A program made the position numbers and the translations under genes. From positions 142,542 to 206,541 of the forward strand of contig JAHJIW010000005.1 in assembly GCA_018823125.1 (NCBI GenBank): a stretch of 64,000 bases of DNA, in the 5' to 3' direction. Position 1 is the stretch's first letter. Each line of letters opens with the position of its first letter. A model generated the notes under the pieces. It was not told the DNA's origin. It ran no database searches and worked only from the letters and a program-made list of their open reading frames with translations. This stretch comes from Candidatus Margulisiibacteriota bacterium. GTDB taxonomy: Bacteria > Margulisbacteria > WOR-1 > JAHJIW01. Positions 28,930 through 39,845 of the stretch are shown piece by piece.

Positions 28930-28957
28930 TCGCCCCAAAAAAAATTGCGGTTTTCAT

Positions 28958-28985
28958 GCAAGTTTCATGCAAGTTAGCCCGATAG
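28958..28985 (+). promoter_or_regulatory. Sigma-28 (FliA/SigD)-class promoter-like motif, copy A: GCAAGTTT-N12-CCCGATAG, with partial tandem duplication of the -35 element
   Basis: ttttcatGCAAGTTTcatgcaagttagCCCGATAGg, 68 nt upstream of the ATG at 29054. Matches TAAAGTTT-N11/12-GCCGATAA. Confidence 0.55.
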
Positions 28986-29053
28986 GACAAGTGGAAGCAA
29001 TGTATAGTATAAAAATAACAATTTATCCTTTAAGATAAAAAAGGAGAGTTTAT

Positions 29054-29398
29054 ATGGGATTCAATGTTTTTGGTGCGAATGTAGGCGGAGCTTTGAACAG
29101 AGCAACCTATAGTGTCGGGGGCAAGGCAAAGGAATACGGAAAGCTGGCACAAAGTGTTGGTCGAGGGTTTAACCTTTTAGGATATGCGTTACACGGGGAG
29201 TTTAAAAAATCAACCGATGGTCTTGCTAATCGTGCCGGGGTTGATGAACAAGAGCAAGATAGACTCACAGGTGGAACTGATACTGATTTAAATGGTGAAG
29301 CAGAAGTGACGGCTACCGGAAACGAACAAATTGTTGCCCCGGTAAATTTCTCAGATCCAAACAGTTCAGCCGGCGGCACCATAGACATTACTGGATAA
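29054..29398 (+). CDS. Hypothetical Gly-rich protein (114 aa)
   Basis: SD AAAAGGAG. MGFNVFGANVGGALNRATYSVGG... with an acidic C-terminus. First gene after promoter A. Confidence 0.5.
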   Translation: MGFNVFGANVGGALNRATYSVGGKAKEYGKLAQSVGRGFNLLGYALHGEFKKSTDGLANRAGVDEQEQDRLTGGTDTDLNGEAEVTATGNEQIVAPVNFSDPNSSAGGTIDITG

Positions 29399-29408
29399 GG
29401 AGTAATCA

Positions 29409-29630
29409 ATGCCATTTCAAATTGATTGGGTTACGATTGCAATTGTACTTTTTGTGATTTTAGTTTTGTACCATGGTACAAAAATCATCTCTTCATACTT
29501 AAAATTAAGAAACACCAAAAAGAAGCTTAAAGAATTAGATGCCCAGCTTAAAGGCATCAATGCTCAAATTGAAACTCATAAAAATAAAATTCAAGCTGAA
29601 ATTAATCAGCGGCAAAATAAACAGGAATAA
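29409..29630 (+). CDS. Small TM plus coiled-coil protein (73 aa)
   Basis: One N-terminal TM (WVTIAIVLFVILVLY) followed by a K/Q-rich helix. SD GGATAAGGAG. Confidence 0.5.
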   Translation: MPFQIDWVTIAIVLFVILVLYHGTKIISSYLKLRNTKKKLKELDAQLKGINAQIETHKNKIQAEINQRQNKQE

Positions 29631-29632
29631 AT

Positions 29633-30880
29633 ATGACAACCTTTGATCCAGTAAATACTAATTCAGCCAGATCACTTATCCCTCGGTTCGAGAGAGGGAC
29701 CCCGGATGAGCAGATCAGCCGTGACGAGTGGGGTCACCATAACGATCCTGATCAATTTAATAGTCATGATAGCAATGGTGATGGTAAGTTGAATGCAGAC
29801 GAATTTTTAGAACTGATTAATGCAAATCGAAATATCACCATTTATGACATTGACGGAAAACCCATCGGTGTGGTAGAAGAAGGGGTGCTTACTGAAGTAC
29901 CACCGGAAGCCAATCCGGCTGCGGATGAAGTAGATCCAGATGACACTACTGCAGATGCTGGTCTTTTAGCTGCACCAGGTGAAGCCTCCGATAACTCAAC
30001 AGAAATAGACGCTCTCCGCAAACTTTATACTCTAGTGAGTGAAGGAGAACGAGTGATCATTGGTGGGCAAGCAATTGATCTTCCTCCAATGATGATGGAG
30101 GCTTTTGGGATCCGGGGCACCGAAAGAGACTGGGTTGGCAAGGCGAAAAACTTTTTAGAAACACGTGGTGGTGAGATTTACGTTAGAGGAGACAAACTGT
30201 TTAAATTTTTAAAACATACCACGGATATTGATGATGCAAATTTAAAAGTTGTGGAAGCACTTTTTGGAAATTATGACGGACAGATTACCGCAGAAGATGC
30301 CATCTTGTTAGATGATTTTATTAGTATCATGCGGGGCAAGATGATTGACCTCACTACCGAAGGTGAGTATTTTGGTGAATGGGTCACCCGCCGTCTGCAA
30401 AAATTTGATTACAGTGAGCTGGGCAACAGACTACAGGCCCTGAATTTTAAAGCACTGGGACCGAAAGCTGAGCAAATCTATAACCTGGCCCTCTTGAGAA
30501 CCAGAGAATCAGATAAAAAGGCTACCGAACCAAATTGGGATTATGTAGCCATGTATTTAATGAACAACTTCTTTAAATCAGCTAAAAAATCTTATAATCC
30601 TACACAAAAAGCAGTCATGATGCAAATAAAGTGGGACGATCCGCTGGCACTGCAGGAACTAGTGCACGAAATTTCTTCTCGAGACGATGCCGGTGAAGAA
30701 ATTACGGTTAGCATTATCGGAAGTTGGTTATCCGAAGGCGAACTACCAAGTACCAGAGATCTTTTATATCTACTTAGAGCTTCGCACGGTAATGTGGATG
30801 CCACATTAGAACCAGTTACGGTGGCGGAAAGCGATACCTCAGCCGCCGAAATCACAGCTTCTTTAGTTGTAGGGAAATAA
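29633..30880 (+). CDS. Hypothetical protein with EF-hand/dockerin-like Ca-binding loop (415 aa)
   Basis: HDSNGDGKLNADEF fits the DxNxDGxIxxxE loop. Acidic overall. Confidence 0.55.
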   Translation: MTTFDPVNTNSARSLIPRFERGTPDEQISRDEWGHHNDPDQFNSHDSNGDGKLNADEFLELINANRNITIYDIDGKPIGVVEEGVLTEVPPEANPAADEVDPDDTTADAGLLAAPGEASDNSTEIDALRKLYTLVSEGERVIIGGQAIDLPPMMMEAFGIRGTERDWVGKAKNFLETRGGEIYVRGDKLFKFLKHTTDIDDANLKVVEALFGNYDGQITAEDAILLDDFISIMRGKMIDLTTEGEYFGEWVTRRLQKFDYSELGNRLQALNFKALGPKAEQIYNLALLRTRESDKKATEPNWDYVAMYLMNNFFKSAKKSYNPTQKAVMMQIKWDDPLALQELVHEISSRDDAGEEITVSIIGSWLSEGELPSTRDLLYLLRASHGNVDATLEPVTVAESDTSAAEITASLVVGK

Positions 30881-37799: not shown

Positions 37800-37804
37800 G
37801 ATAA

Positions 37805-37836
37805 CGAGGGGTTTCGCGAGGAACCCCTCTTCTAAA
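37805..37836 (+). terminator. Rho-independent terminator-like hairpin
   Basis: cGAGGGGTTtcgcgaggAACCCCTCttctaaaataattt: 8/9-bp GC-rich stem followed by a T-rich tract. Confidence 0.5.
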
Positions 37837-37898
37837 ATAATTTATAGCTTTATAAGTTATTTTTGAAGATAAGAAATAATTAATTAGGGAGGAATAAA

Positions 37899-38204
37899 AT
37901 GGGATACGTTACACCAACCAGTAAAGTAACTAATGCGGTAGTGTCGATGGGCAGCACAATTGACGAAACCATGCGGAGTTTTTATGAAGAAACCCAGCAT
38001 ATTTTGTCCGCAATGCTTAATTATGATGATGATACAACGTTAGAAATCATGGGTATTACTCTTACCGGTGATCAAATTGTTTCTGCTCCAGGACAGTACT
38101 TATTTAATCAGTTTACTTCGGTCTCGGAAAATGTCACCAGCACTTCTTTAAGTATTTGGAATGCGATTAACAAAGCTGAGGAAAGTATCGCGCAAATGAT
38201 ATAA
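37899..38204 (+). CDS. Small helical protein (101 aa)
   Basis: SD AGGGAGG. MGYVTPTSKVTNAVVSMGSTIDETMRSF... Confidence 0.5.
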   Translation: MGYVTPTSKVTNAVVSMGSTIDETMRSFYEETQHILSAMLNYDDDTTLEIMGITLTGDQIVSAPGQYLFNQFTSVSENVTSTSLSIWNAINKAEESIAQMI

Positions 38205-38216
38205 TACGGAGAATTT

Positions 38217-39788
38217 TTGATGTCACAAACAATAGTTGCAATGCAAAAACCAATTAAGCCGGTAAAATTTTCCCTGCCAGATGGTTATTTTGAAGAGATG
38301 TTTTATAGCACGGGTAGCTCGCAAGCTGCAGAGTTCCAAGCTAGCACCTTTTTAAATTTTTTAGGTGAGTCTTTTCAGTTCTTATCTCCAGAGTTAATTG
38401 ATATGTATACGGGGGGAGAAGAGGGAGATGAAGCACTCCAAGCCGATTACGAAGAACTGTGGAGCTCAATTTTTGGCGAGGGATCAATCTTAGATGGAAC
38501 GGGATTTGGCGCCGGAGGAAAAAACGTTGATTTTTATACGACCGGAAATGATTTCACAATTTATGATGAATACGATACTACCTTTGACGGACAGGCTTAC
38601 GACGAACTCATTAATTTTACTGATCCATCAAAATATTTTGGGTACGATTTTGATCTTTCCTCATATTGGAGTGGAGCCCAATCTTTTGCTGATAATTATT
38701 TAAGTGATCAAAATATCCATGCTTTTATTCAATCCGGTAATTATGCTAGTTTAAGTGCCGAACAATTATTTGATTTTATGGCTTTAGTTACCGAAAAAAC
38801 TAATCGTATCACTTATGCCATGGGTTATCTGTTCGGTTCTTTCCAGTATATCAATTCACCACTTGATAATGAGGCCATGCAAGCCCAAATGGAATCCGTT
38901 TGGGGACAAGGTTTTTTAAATGACTTGGATTGTCACGATCAGTACATTTTTGGTGCATTCTTAAAAATGATGCCGGTGGTGCATGAATACATTGCCGCAC
39001 TCAAAAACCCATCAACTGGATTACTTTTAGCATCTGAACAATCAGCTTATGCTGGTTTTAATAGCCACCTGGTTGATAAGATGGAAACCTATTTCGAAGA
39101 ATATATCGAGCAATTCGATCCCAGTATTGATGTGGAGGATCGTGATCAAGCTATCCTTAATCAATATGAGGATGAATACCGCTTCCTACAAAGCTATTTA
39201 GGTATATCTTCAAATAACTATAGTTCACTGTATATTGACGAGGTTAATGATGCTTCTTTTCAAAATCAACCCTTTCTGTATAGTTTAAATGATGTACTGG
39301 GCAGCAATGGAGCGGTCAGCTGGGCCTTTTATAGTAAAAATGATAGCACCAATATTTCTGATGGTGCTTTTGATTTTGATAATCCATATTTAGCCTATTC
39401 ACAAATTGGGAGCCTGAGCAATGCCGAAGAGAGAGCCTTAGCCGCCGCGGGTAACTGGGTGGCCATTGCTAATTCCTATATTGGCAACTCTTACGAAAAG
39501 GAAATTACTCGACCGATGTCATTTAGCTGTGTCTATCGAAGTCAAAAGGCAAATTATGACATCAAAAAAGATAAATACGACGCCGAAAAAGAAGCAGCAG
39601 AATTACGTGAATTACAACTGAAAAAAGCAGCCAGCATGAGCAGAGCAGAAAGAGTAAAAGCACAGAAAAAGAGCGAAGCAGCGAGTCAACAAAAAAGAAA
39701 AGAATTATTAGGCTTAAGCAAAGCTGATCAAAAAAAGCAAGCAAAACGCCAAAAATCGCAAAGTAAAAAGCAGCCTTTAAAAGCTTAA
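38217..39788 (+). CDS. Hypothetical protein (523 aa): acidic aromatic-rich body with Lys-rich C-terminal tail
   Basis: The body is D/E/Y/F/N-rich. The last ~85 aa are K/Q/A/E/R-rich (KKDKYDAEKEAAELRELQLKKAASMSRAERVKAQKKSEAASQQKRKELLGLSKADQKKQAKRQKSQSKKQPLKA). Confidence 0.6.
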   Translation: MMSQTIVAMQKPIKPVKFSLPDGYFEEMFYSTGSSQAAEFQASTFLNFLGESFQFLSPELIDMYTGGEEGDEALQADYEELWSSIFGEGSILDGTGFGAGGKNVDFYTTGNDFTIYDEYDTTFDGQAYDELINFTDPSKYFGYDFDLSSYWSGAQSFADNYLSDQNIHAFIQSGNYASLSAEQLFDFMALVTEKTNRITYAMGYLFGSFQYINSPLDNEAMQAQMESVWGQGFLNDLDCHDQYIFGAFLKMMPVVHEYIAALKNPSTGLLLASEQSAYAGFNSHLVDKMETYFEEYIEQFDPSIDVEDRDQAILNQYEDEYRFLQSYLGISSNNYSSLYIDEVNDASFQNQPFLYSLNDVLGSNGAVSWAFYSKNDSTNISDGAFDFDNPYLAYSQIGSLSNAEERALAAAGNWVAIANSYIGNSYEKEITRPMSFSCVYRSQKANYDIKKDKYDAEKEAAELRELQLKKAASMSRAERVKAQKKSEAASQQKRKELLGLSKADQKKQAKRQKSQSKKQPLKA

Positions 39789-39817
39789 TTACCCATAAAA
39801 ATAATCCTCGGTTTCAT

Positions 39818-39845
39818 GCAAGTTTTTAGCCCCAGAACACGATAA
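39818..39845 (+). promoter_or_regulatory. Sigma-28-class promoter-like motif, copy D: GCAAGTTT-N12-CACGATAA
   Basis: ggtttcatGCAAGTTTttagccccagaaCACGATAAat, 40 nt upstream of the ATG at 39886. Confidence 0.5.

Follow-up and report, generated by a model that had tools for sequence, protein, structure and literature searches.

Candidate sigma-28-type promoters ahead of lineage-specific operons and flagellar genes in Margulisbacteria

A short sequence motif recurs four times on one strand of the window, the 64-kb stretch of Margulisiibacteriota DNA that was analysed, and the locus raises the question of what this motif does and which protein would read it. The first-pass annotation had described four copies sharing one box, GCAAGTTT, and one 12-nt spacer. 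Exact matching confirmed this, with the box at 28958-28965, 31176-31183, 36889-36896 and 39818-39825 in copies A, B, C and D, respectively, and the order box, 12 nt, -10 box in all four. A window scan agreed, and an independent repeat search grouped the same four copies as family D1. The complete elements are as follows.

28952..28993, + strand: promoter A, with TTTCATGCAAGTTT at 28952-28965, a 12-nt spacer, the -10 box CCCGATAG at 28978-28985 and a conserved GTG at 28991-28993
31171..31211, + strand: promoter B, with TTTATGCAAGTTT, a 12-nt spacer, the -10 box CCCGATAT at 31196-31203 and the inferred start region
36883..36924, + strand: promoter C, with TTTCATGCAAGTTT, a 12-nt spacer, the -10 box CCCGATTA at 36909-36916 and the inferred start region
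39812..39853, + strand: promoter D, with TTTCATGCAAGTTT, a 12-nt spacer, the -10 box CACGATAA at 39838-39845 and the inferred start region

The strict pattern ATGCAAGTTT-N12-CNCGAT has four exact matches in the window, all on the + strand (28956, 31174, 36887 and 39816), versus 0.00 expected from 100 dinucleotide-preserving shuffles. With a 52-nt weight matrix, promoters A-D score 48-53 bits, whereas the rest of the 64 kb reaches at most 8 bits on both strands and shuffled sequence 7.2 bits at best (20 shuffles); the window thus holds no further copy, as had been stated. The same contig carries a fifth copy outside the window, ~10 kb to its left (L050:19965). The TTTCAT extension, annotated as conserved, is present in A, C and D but not in B, which reads TTTAT. 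The 11-nt tandem duplication TCATGCAAGTT/TCATGCAAGTT described for copy A was found at 28954-28975, and the spacer of this promoter contains a second GCAAGTT box 11 nt downstream of the first. Its GTG at 28991-28993 falls where transcription would be predicted to start. The ATG follows 68, 50, 24 and 40 nt after the last base of the -10 box (A-D), matching the 24-68 nt given earlier, and each ATG is preceded by a purine-rich Shine-Dalgarno-like stretch. Promoter C begins 14 nt past the stop codon of the 1871-aa gene.

Acting as promoters, A-D would define four transcription units within 29054-44004, a 15-kb block of co-directional genes that encodes 15 Margulisbacteria-specific proteins.

29054..31125, + strand: operon A, four ORFs of 114, 73, 415 and 79 aa, with orthologues in L029 and L060
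31254..36869, + strand: operon B, a single 1871-aa protein
36941..39788, + strand: operon C, small proteins of 81, 100, 92 and 101 aa and a 523-aa protein
39886..44004, + strand: operon D, proteins of 216, 136, 58, 553 and 381 aa

Family and fold searches returned no match for the 15 lineage-specific proteins of these operons, including no family match above threshold for operon A and none for any of the five operon C proteins; no flagellin was seen among the products of 29054-44004. In operon A, the 73-aa and 79-aa products resemble paralogues, a coiled coil coming after a single membrane-like segment in both, and a lone weak EF-hand-like loop was noted in the 415-aa protein. The operon B protein, named in the protein database 'MAG: hypothetical protein KKB81_01740 [Candidatus Margulisbacteria bacterium]', repeats a helical motif of ~50 aa (R..V..EL.G) four or more times and has two hydrophobic segments, residues 473-503 and 667-685; orthologues occur in L029, L060, L070, L071 and L135, with the motif upstream of each. 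The gene arrangement of operon C recurs in L135, L136 and L137. For operon D, a structure model predicts a three-helix bundle for the 136-aa protein, whose family counts just 21 representatives in 1.84 billion, and the 553-aa protein is predicted to be all-helical. The 553-aa family is restricted to Margulisiibacteriota or Saganbacteria MAGs, and elsewhere its gene carries a motif copy of its own (L053, L068, L136:9928 and L137:9952).

Scans of sequence collections recovered 115 distinct sites of the motif, essentially all in Margulisiibacteriota or Saganbacteria sequence. In the genome scan, the named sources of high-scoring matches were Saganbacteria, Margulisiibacteriota, Marinamargulisbacteria and WOR-1 MAGs, other matches scoring low, and the metagenome scan contributed ~60 additional sites. 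Only 7 of the 115 sites fall within an ORF of 100 aa or more on the same strand, versus 52% of random positions, and a same-strand ORF starts within 150 nt of 96 of 105 sites (median 48 nt), versus 33% of random positions. Among 48 related-DNA sites not selected by the search pattern, the gap from GCAAGTT to CGA[TA] is exactly 15 nt in 37, and the CGA of the -10 box is invariant across sites. The comparison supports promoter-like behaviour of the motif, which falls between genes, points the same way as the gene that follows and keeps a rigid spacing. It likewise favours the earlier proposal of a regulon rather than isolated genes.

The motif is kept at orthologous positions although the flanking proteins are only 30-49% identical. 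Around promoter B, ~55 nt are conserved nearly base for base at the orthologous L029 position, where the flanking proteins are only ~33% identical. Equivalents of promoter C precede the small-gene block in L135 (5887) and L136 (4544, 5107 and 5828), and promoter D is conserved at the orthologous position in L013 and at L135:8846. In L043, L042, L038, L054, L059 and L063, the counterpart of the cluster's first promoter likewise has the second GCAAGTT box. Counting against a sigma-28 assignment, conservation goes further than the contacts of such a factor would require, to the TTTCAT extension, a CC in the spacer and the start region.

A link to flagellar genes emerged in the relatives. In six of six related loci (L058, L138, L139, L140, L141 and L142), the motif lies directly upstream of a fliK-like gene (PF02120; score 34.3 bits, cut-off 29.8). 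At the operon led by this gene, the motif is followed by a distinct promoter of sigma-70-like sequence, TTGACT-N17-TATATT. In L138-L140, the three loci long enough to show it, the fliK-like gene heads a basal-body cluster that continues with flhB-like, flgF/G, flgA, flgH, flgI, a sigma factor, flgB, flgC and fliE-fliJ (fliE, fliF, fliG, fliH, fliI and fliJ). The sigma factor has 245-248 aa with regions 2 and 4. The best NCBIfam match in L138 and L139, the two proteins scanned, is TIGR02479 FliA_WhiG (2.9e-39 and 1.2e-42); that of L140 clusters with the L139 protein at 90% identity. The scores of 135-146 bits fall under the NCBI curated cut-off of 189.6, and the factor is therefore a divergent member. 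Its cluster mates carry the JGI label 'sigma factor for flagellar operon FliA', and the L138 protein and E. coli FliA can be aligned over their whole lengths (28% identity).

The unknown-gene cluster and the flagellar/fliA cluster share genomes: OY969425.1 carries both (L042 and L138), as does MAG ABH860 (P0009 and P0045), and a 393,847-bp contig is listed for P0096 as well as for P0008. FlgV, found in flagellar superoperons and often adjoining the sigma-28 gene, has been placed in Margulisbacteria (PMC11607428), and flagellins have been reported there (PMC7018530). Several negative results weigh against the sigma-28 link. The ~84 kb covered of the assembly to which the window belongs showed neither fliA nor any flagellar gene, and no sigma factor of another kind. 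Among the families listed for ~160 ORFs downstream of the motif, no late flagellar gene (flagellin, hook-associated, FliD, FliS, FlgM or MotAB) was recognisable. A search of ~1.07 Mb of motif-selected DNA also gave nothing resembling a flagellin, although this negative is weak.

The sigma-28 consensus is TAAAGTTT-N11-GCCGATAA (PMC2859248). The box GCAAGTTT matches TAAAGTTT at 6 of 8 positions and CCCGATAA/T matches GCCGATAA at 7 of 8, whereas the spacer is 12 nt instead of the 11 nt of the E. coli consensus and the -35 box starts with GC instead of TA. Judged from sequence comparison, the four sites are probably promoters read by RNA polymerase with a sigma factor of the FliA/SigD/WhiG (sigma-28) family. 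The sigma-28-class assignment made earlier is in this way supported by the promoter-like behaviour of the motif, the fliK-led operons and the FliA_WhiG-type factor.

Parsed as TGCAAG-N17-CGAT, the motif also fits the layout of ECF promoters, such as the B. subtilis sigma-W promoter (TGAAAC-N16-CGTATA), and agrees with their 16-17 nt spacing; it might then be read by a different alternative sigma factor, an ECF (group 4) or other group 3 factor controlling cell-envelope genes. A regulon rich in envelope and surface products (FadL/PorV-like barrels, Ig-like or sorting-tail signal-peptide proteins, membrane proteins) suits such a factor, as do the classical late flagellar genes missing downstream of the motif among the families listed, and the link between the FliA-like factor and the motif is a comparative one. 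However, the ECF hallmark bases are AAC in the -35 box and CGT in the -10 box, where the motif has AAG and CGA, and the sigma-28 consensus gives longer contiguous matches, AAGTTT and CCGATAA. ECF factors usually drive their own sigma/anti-sigma operon, but no sigma-70-family domain occurs downstream of the motif among the families listed, and the only sigma gene downstream of a copy is the FliA/WhiG-like one within the flagellar cluster. We regard this alternative as unlikely. It is distinctly improbable that TCATGCAAGTTT is an activator or repressor site, with the A/T-rich GATAAT or TATAAG after CGAT serving as a sigma-70 -10 box. Many copies are indeed TATAAT-like after CGAT, an XRE-type helix-turn-helix gene follows the motif in L050, L110 and L011 (the last by a site sequence identical to that of L110, no ORF being called there), and the first promoter of the cluster has two GCAAGTT boxes 11 nt, or one helical turn, apart, a spacing often seen in the direct repeats bound by response regulators. 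The second box, however, is found in a minority of sites only, the invariant CGA and the C before it serve no sigma-70 role, and copies A-D have no TTGACA-like hexamer 16-18 nt upstream of GATAAT. A regional sigma-70 scan yielded fewer sites than shuffles and none at the four copies. The fliK-led operon has its own sigma-70-like promoter after the motif, which argues that the motif is itself a promoter.

The motif could instead act in RNA, as a processing site, leader element or protein-binding site of a cluster-long transcript. Each of the four copies occupies a short gap flanked by genes running in the same direction, and + strand terminator-like hairpins are absent from these gaps, which makes read-through transcripts carrying the motif plausible, and sequence downstream of the -10 box is conserved. 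Yet read-through cannot account for 25 of 100 motif sites, because the upstream gene is divergent there; the L138 site comes after a terminator-like hairpin that follows an L25 gene, and copy A after an unrelated glycosyltransferase gene. The two conserved blocks are not complementary, the spacer between them varies, and no Rfam match was obtained at E<=1 in 28000-45000, leaving an RNA role highly improbable. A dispersed repeat or transposon end, named in the first-pass annotation as the finding that would count against promoters, is largely refuted and retains a negligible chance. There are multiple copies per genome, and one unrelated high-GC MAG has a palindromic repeat containing the search pattern (seven 'Mycobacteriales' hits); among Margulisbacteria sites, however, similarity stops within ~50 nt, inverted partners and target duplications are absent, orientation follows the downstream gene, and copies are orthologously placed across deeply diverged genomes, unlike a REP-/MITE-like element or mobile-element end.

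For promoters of the sigma-28 type, sigma region 4 would contact the extended -35 box (T)TTCATGCAAGTTT and region 2 the -10 box C(C/A)CGAT(A/T) with its invariant CGA, with GCAAGTT-N15-CGA keeping the two a constant distance apart; the predicted transcription start is the conserved (A/G)TG, ~8-10 nt past CGAT. We infer that a factor of the L138-L140 type reads the motif and that the genome of the window encodes one. The phylum-wide regulon would include the syntenic unknown-gene block, the fliK-led flagellar basal-body operon, an XRE-type regulator, FadL/PorV-like outer-membrane barrels, and surface proteins that have a signal peptide and, at the C-terminus, an Ig-like or sorting-tail region. 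Since the fliK-led operon itself contains the fliA-like gene in the three loci reaching it, the factor probably reinforces its own synthesis. On this reading, the motif represents a familiar promoter class in a form specific to this lineage, and the regulon under it is an unexpected one.

Among known systems, the FliA class 3 promoters of E. coli and Salmonella, TAAAGTTT-N11-GCCGATAA, share the bipartite octamer layout, the cores AAGTTT and CCGATA(A/T) with invariant CGA, the rigid short spacing and a position tens of nt upstream of gene starts. The Margulisbacteria motif differs in its 12-nt spacer, GC-initial -35 box, TTTCAT 5' extension and conserved start region, and its targets in the window are lineage-specific unknowns, not flagellin, chemotaxis or motor genes. 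The fla/che operon of B. subtilis has a SigD-dependent promoter upstream of a SigA promoter and sigD within the operon. The related Margulisbacteria loci have the same tandem layout, the motif being followed by TTGACT-N17-TATATT and a long basal-body operon, and the same scope for positive feedback through a fliA-like gene inside the putative operon, but gene content and order differ, with fliK first and the sigma gene between flgI and flgB.

In Chlamydia trachomatis, sigma-28 is used for two late genes that are not flagellar, hctB and tsp (PMC12282069). The likeness would lie in a FliA-family sigma used for genes other than flagellar structural ones; Chlamydia, however, has two targets only and no flagellum, whereas Margulisbacteria have many candidate promoters per genome and, in relatives, a flagellar basal-body cluster within the regulon. 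In Campylobacter jejuni, the sigma-28-dependent Feds and CiaI are non-flagellar secreted proteins exported via the flagellar apparatus. The Margulisbacteria proteins are unrelated to them in sequence and form a large syntenic cluster conserved phylum-wide; they would nevertheless share with them the lack of signal peptides and co-regulation with flagellar genes via sigma-28 promoters, and by this analogy Feds and CiaI are a possible model for the Margulisbacteria unknown-gene cluster.

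Four copies of the motif, each consisting of a -35-like box, a 12-nt spacer and a -10-like box with CGA, were confirmed on re-reading of the sequence to lie exactly where the first-pass annotation had put them. Each is situated within a short gap separating co-directional genes, and between them they cut the co-directional 15-kb block at 29054-44004 into four units that hold 15 ORFs in all:

28952..28993, + strand: promoter A, ahead of operon A (29054..31125)
31171..31211, + strand: promoter B, ahead of operon B (31254..36869)
36883..36924, + strand: promoter C, ahead of operon C (36941..39788)
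39812..39853, + strand: promoter D, ahead of operon D (39886..44004)

In the 64-kb window, ATGCAAGTTT-N12-CNCGAT is matched exactly four times, always on the + strand; 100 dinucleotide-preserving shuffles contain no match. A 52-nt weight matrix, built from the window copies and related sites, gives the four copies 48-53 bits, the rest of the window at most 8 bits and shuffled sequence a maximum of 7.2 bits; with nothing between 8 and 48 bits, the earlier statement that the motif occurs nowhere else in the window holds for this matrix. A repeat finder groups the same four copies as one family. The copies stand, as first described, 24-68 nt before an ATG with a purine-rich ribosome-binding stretch, and the 11-nt tandem duplication noticed in copy A is perfect (TCATGCAAGTT twice, 28954-28975). 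The TTTCAT extension, initially taken to be conserved, is present in A, C and D but reads TTTAT in copy B.

Copy A carries a second GCAAGTT box (window 28965-28975) inside its spacer, exactly 11 nt, or one helical turn, downstream of the first. This box is limited to the first promoter of the cluster and is kept with it across distant MAGs, at L043:7066, L042:1991, L038:2113, L054:1714, L059:121 and L063:8634 (L-numbers denote loci fetched from related genomes and metagenomes); an additional regulator may bind there, or the sigma factor may dock in a second way. A fifth copy of the motif was found outside the window, some 10 kb to its left on the same contig (L050:19965-20010, 35.8 bits), upstream of an XRE-family helix-turn-helix gene and, next to it, a Fic-domain gene. 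An XRE gene also lies behind a similar copy in L110, and the same site sequence occurs in L011 with no ORF called. Terminator-like hairpins were not found in the + strand gaps of the block. The sole strong hairpin in the intergenic gaps of the cluster is an 8-bp GC-rich stem-loop (GAGGGGTT...AACCCCTC, window 37806-37829), located in the gap that separates small genes three and four of operon C.

The sigma-28 consensus is TAAAGTTT-N11-GCCGATAA (PMC2859248). Both boxes of the motif resemble it, GCAAGTTT agreeing with the -35 consensus at 6 of 8 positions and C(C/A)CGATA(A/T) with the -10 consensus at 6-7 of 8, and the distance between the boxes is fixed. The spacer measures 12 nt in the four window copies and in related sites, one base more than the 11 nt of the E. 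coli consensus, which makes it a variant of the same layout. A literature search returned no paper on promoters or sigma factors of Margulisbacteria, and queries with the motif strings gave primer noise only.

The pattern TCATGCAAGTTT-N12-CNCGAT was scanned against one representative genome per species, yielding 46 loci, about 25 of them with a high-scoring, extended motif; where named, the MAGs of these high-scoring loci belong to Saganbacteria, Margulisiibacteriota, Marinamargulisbacteria or WOR-1. Five matches fall on one complete chromosome, OY969425.1. Seven others were discarded as an unrelated repeat in a high-GC MAG labelled Mycobacteriales (SMAG_U4216; L005, L028, L036, L040, L045, L047 and L049), where a palindromic repeat of about 51 nt (TCATGCAAGTTTGGTCGTGAAAATCGCGATTTCACGACCAAACTTGCATGA) is present in many copies in a genome of 67-71% GC and matches the pattern by chance; the remaining loci have low scores and were likewise set aside as chance matches. 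On metagenome contigs the same scan returned 83 loci, with high scores for about 60.

Across 676 kb of lineage-related DNA, 115 distinct GCAAGTT-N15-CGA[TA] sites were collected. The exact 15-nt spacing between GCAAGTT and CGA[TA] recurs in 37 of the 48 pairs that lie outside selection by the search pattern, other spacings being seen once or twice each. Only 7 of the 115 sites fall within an ORF of 100 aa or more on the same strand, compared with 52% of random positions, and a same-strand ORF start lies within 150 nt of 96 of 105 sites (median 48), compared with 33% of random positions; the upstream gene is opposite in direction at 25 of 100 sites. On this comparative evidence the initial proposal of a regulon rather than isolated genes is supported. 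The wider consensus is aaTTTCATGCAAGTTTT-n-sCC-n-CMCGATAWWWWWW-rTGkArGG; CGA is part of the definition of the 115-site set, and CG is invariant in every pattern-selected site, outside that definition.

Distant Margulisbacteria MAGs show synteny over the 15-kb block, with gene order and neighbours alike (histidine phosphatase, hisA/F, hisH, ROK kinase, groES/EL), and none of the genes called within it there has a Pfam family on record. Promoter B and the site before the orthologous giant gene in L029 match nearly base for base over about 55 nt, while the two proteins are about 33% identical. Promoter D is kept in L013, and motif copies stand at matching positions in L135 (four), L136 (four) and L137 (two). 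The 553-aa gene has its own motif copy in several relatives, unlike the window's gene. An extra 933-aa gene with its own copy lies between the ROK kinase gene and groES at L135:16045-18925, a position where the window has no gene.

In related loci the motif precedes flagellar genes. Among the 84 first genes downstream of motif sites that were scanned for families, L058:1-1164 encodes a FliK-like protein (Pfam Flg_hook, 34.3 bits against a cut-off of 29.8) with homologues of about 410-430 aa that make up one family; the surroundings of five of them were read. In each of the six loci (L058 and L138 to L142) the motif stands immediately before the fliK-like gene. This gene heads a basal-body/fliA cluster in L138, L139 and L140; on the short contigs L141 and L142 only the first genes of the cluster are covered. 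OY969425.1, which also carries the unknown-gene cluster, contains L138, where the order is as follows:

L138 cluster, 5' part: ribosomal protein L25, motif, sigma-70-like promoter, fliK-like, flhB-C-like, flgF/G (two genes), flgA, flgH, flgI
L138 cluster, 3' part: 95-aa ORF, 245-248-aa sigma factor, flgB, flgC, fliE, fliF, fliG, fliH, fliI, fliJ

Between the motif and the fliK-like start lies a sigma-70-like TTGACT-N17-TATATT (L138:9940-9990, L139:9915-9960, L140:3700-3745), so the flagellar operon appears to have tandem promoters. In the B. subtilis fla/che operon, a sigma-28-type promoter is likewise followed by a housekeeping one, with the sigma gene inside the operon; tandem promoters ahead of an operon that contains a sigma gene would imply positive feedback. 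An antisense GCAAGTT-N15-CGAT, conserved between L139:11092 (-) and L140:4882 (-), sits inside the 3' end of the fliK-like gene and may reflect either chance through coding conservation or an internal antisense promoter.

The embedded sigma factor, whose gene lies at 16398-17135 in L138, was scanned in its L138 and L139 copies; FliA_WhiG (TIGR02479) is the best NCBIfam model for both (E 2.9e-39 and 1.2e-42), at 135-146 bits, under the curated cut-off of 189.6; the FliA and WhiG equivalogs come next, above the SigB/F/G, RpoD and RpoS models. Cluster mates of the L139 and L140 sigma factors are annotated by JGI as flagellar-operon sigma factor FliA, and the L138 protein aligns end to end with E. 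coli FliA at 28% identity. FlgV, which occurs in flagellar superoperons and often beside the sigma-28 gene, has been placed in Margulisbacteria, as have flagellins (PMC11607428, PMC7018530). In the window itself no flagellar genes were seen, and no FliA/WhiG-family sigma factor was found in the approximately 84 kb readable from its own MAG; two FliK homologues from NCBI (protein records P0081 and P0083) come from assemblies other than this MAG. Searches by tblastn gave no match for E. coli FliA, RpoD regions 2 and 4, the FliC ends, FliP, FlgG or MotA in 0.94-1.07 Mb, and no flagellin-like sequence in about 1.07 Mb, the latter a weak negative.

Taken together, sequence comparison indicates that these four motif copies act as promoters within a lineage-wide regulon whose most probable reader is a sigma factor of divergent FliA/WhiG type. 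Recognition by another alternative sigma factor is a weaker reading. A promoter of the ECF type (group 4) is expected to show AAC at -35 and CGT at -10 and to belong to an autoregulated sigma/anti-sigma operon; neither that pair nor such an operon was found, the motif having AAG and CGA instead, and the families listed for 159 ORFs behind motif sites, at most 25 per listing, include no sigma-70-family domain. An operator combined with a sigma-70 promoter is also the weaker explanation, and sigma-70-like promoters show no excess in the window region.

The motif could alternatively act as an RNA element, again a weaker reading: no known cis-regulatory RNA in Rfam matches window 28000-45000 at E<=1. 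A dispersed repeat, such as a REP, a MITE or the transposon end that the first-pass annotation had named as the outcome that would overturn it, is disfavored by several features, since similarity is confined to about 50 nt without an inverted partner, orientation is tied to the downstream gene and copies occupy orthologous positions. A FliA/WhiG-type promoter remains the preferred reading.

The window is chromosomal DNA of a metagenome-assembled genome, and the block is surrounded by pdxJ, rpiB, a sugar-nucleotide transferase gene, hisA/F, hisH, a ROK kinase gene, groEL, nusA-infB-rbfA-truB and ligA. A prophage or defence island was considered and dropped because the block keeps this core-genome position (hisA/F, hisH, ROK kinase, groES/EL) in distant MAGs. 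None of the 15 block proteins scored above threshold against Pfam and NCBIfam, the 553-, 523- and 415-aa proteins gave nothing meaningful in a sequence search of the PDB, and 46 pooled orthologues from four genomes showed no recurrent weak flagellar matches at E<=1. The 1871-aa protein (window 31254-36869), composed of repeated helical modules and hydrophobic segments, found only itself in a homologue search, its candidate list having been filled up by coiled-coil words. A motif of about 50 aa (...N..R..I.I.L.....R..V..EL.G..., at about residues 218, 397, 599 and 812) recurs in it at least four times, and two strongly hydrophobic segments (473-503 and 667-685) lie among these copies. The 553-aa family is found in Margulisiibacteriota or Saganbacteria MAGs only, and the 136-aa family is represented by 21 of 1.84 billion proteins. 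AlphaFold models of both are helical (pLDDT 59.6 for the 553-aa family; 80.7 for the 136-aa family, a three-helix bundle), and Foldseek against the PDB returned only generic helical matches (E>0.04).

The block also has a run of four proteins of 81-101 aa. The 73- and 79-aa ORFs (window 29409-29630 and 30886-31125), one on either side of the 415-aa gene, look like paralogues in which a charged coiled coil follows a membrane-like segment at the N-terminus. Two pairs of translation-start regions are near-identical (37888-37921 with 40952-40985; 37490-37517 with 41153-41180): one pair encodes the similar N-termini MGYVTPTS and MGSAAPTS, and the other shares TTTTAAAAAAAGGAGGTGAAAT before the 92-aa and 553-aa genes. 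A myristoylation-like enrichment of Met-Gly N-termini, about 9 of 84 by eye, was not convincing. Elsewhere in the window, a trehalose gene set (16572-20709; family 20 glycosyltransferase, OtsA-like; trehalose phosphatase; DUF5752; TreT-like synthase) adjoins shikimate kinase and dehydroquinate synthase genes. The minus strand carries two genes of the phosphoglucose-isomerase family (56925-58658 and 60082-61464, the second divergent); on the plus strand between them (59259-60085), a HEPN-domain gene is accompanied by a 103-aa partner, a possible toxin-antitoxin-like pair.

In addition to the syntenic block and the basal-body operon, first genes that recur behind the motif encode the giant protein and the 553-aa family, together with outer-membrane barrels weakly similar to FadL/UPF0164/DUF5723, surface proteins that have a signal peptide, Ig-like domains and weak FlgD_ig or sorting-tail ends, an XRE regulator and many small orphan proteins. 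Flagellin, hook-associated, cap, chaperone, anti-sigma and motor families are absent from the families listed for about 160 downstream ORFs.

As a speculation that we ourselves rate as improbable, the 15-kb block of Margulisbacteria could represent the late gene class of an export apparatus derived from the flagellum. A sigma-28-type factor would then co-regulate a basal body (rod, L and P rings, MS ring, export ATPase and FliK-like ruler) with lineage-specific proteins lacking signal peptides, among them, as cargo or parts, the giant membrane protein of about 1,870 aa and repeated modules. The block proteins would leave the cell through the basal body or be built onto it, replacing or supplementing the canonical hook and filament, and the result would be a new extracellular structure or secretion function on a flagellar core.

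Margulisbacteria are an uncultivated sister lineage of Cyanobacteria, and to our knowledge nothing is known of their gene regulation. Since the signature is sharp (about 50 bits, with the window empty between 8 and 48), the regulon should be readable from any genome or metagenome of the phylum. It links a syntenic, phylum-wide cluster of unknown genes to a flagellar sigma factor and basal-body operon, which offers a first functional clue for the block proteins and raises the question of whether they are cargo or parts of a flagellum-type machine. The promoter class itself is already known; what is new, relative to the E. coli sigma-28 consensus, is a lineage-specific form with a longer -35 box, one more spacer base and a conserved start region, as well as its apparent use for a large conserved block of unknown genes co-regulated with the flagellar basal-body operon. 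A sigma-28 promoter can thus drift in its -35 box and spacer and stay recognizable, which is useful for promoter annotation in candidate phyla.
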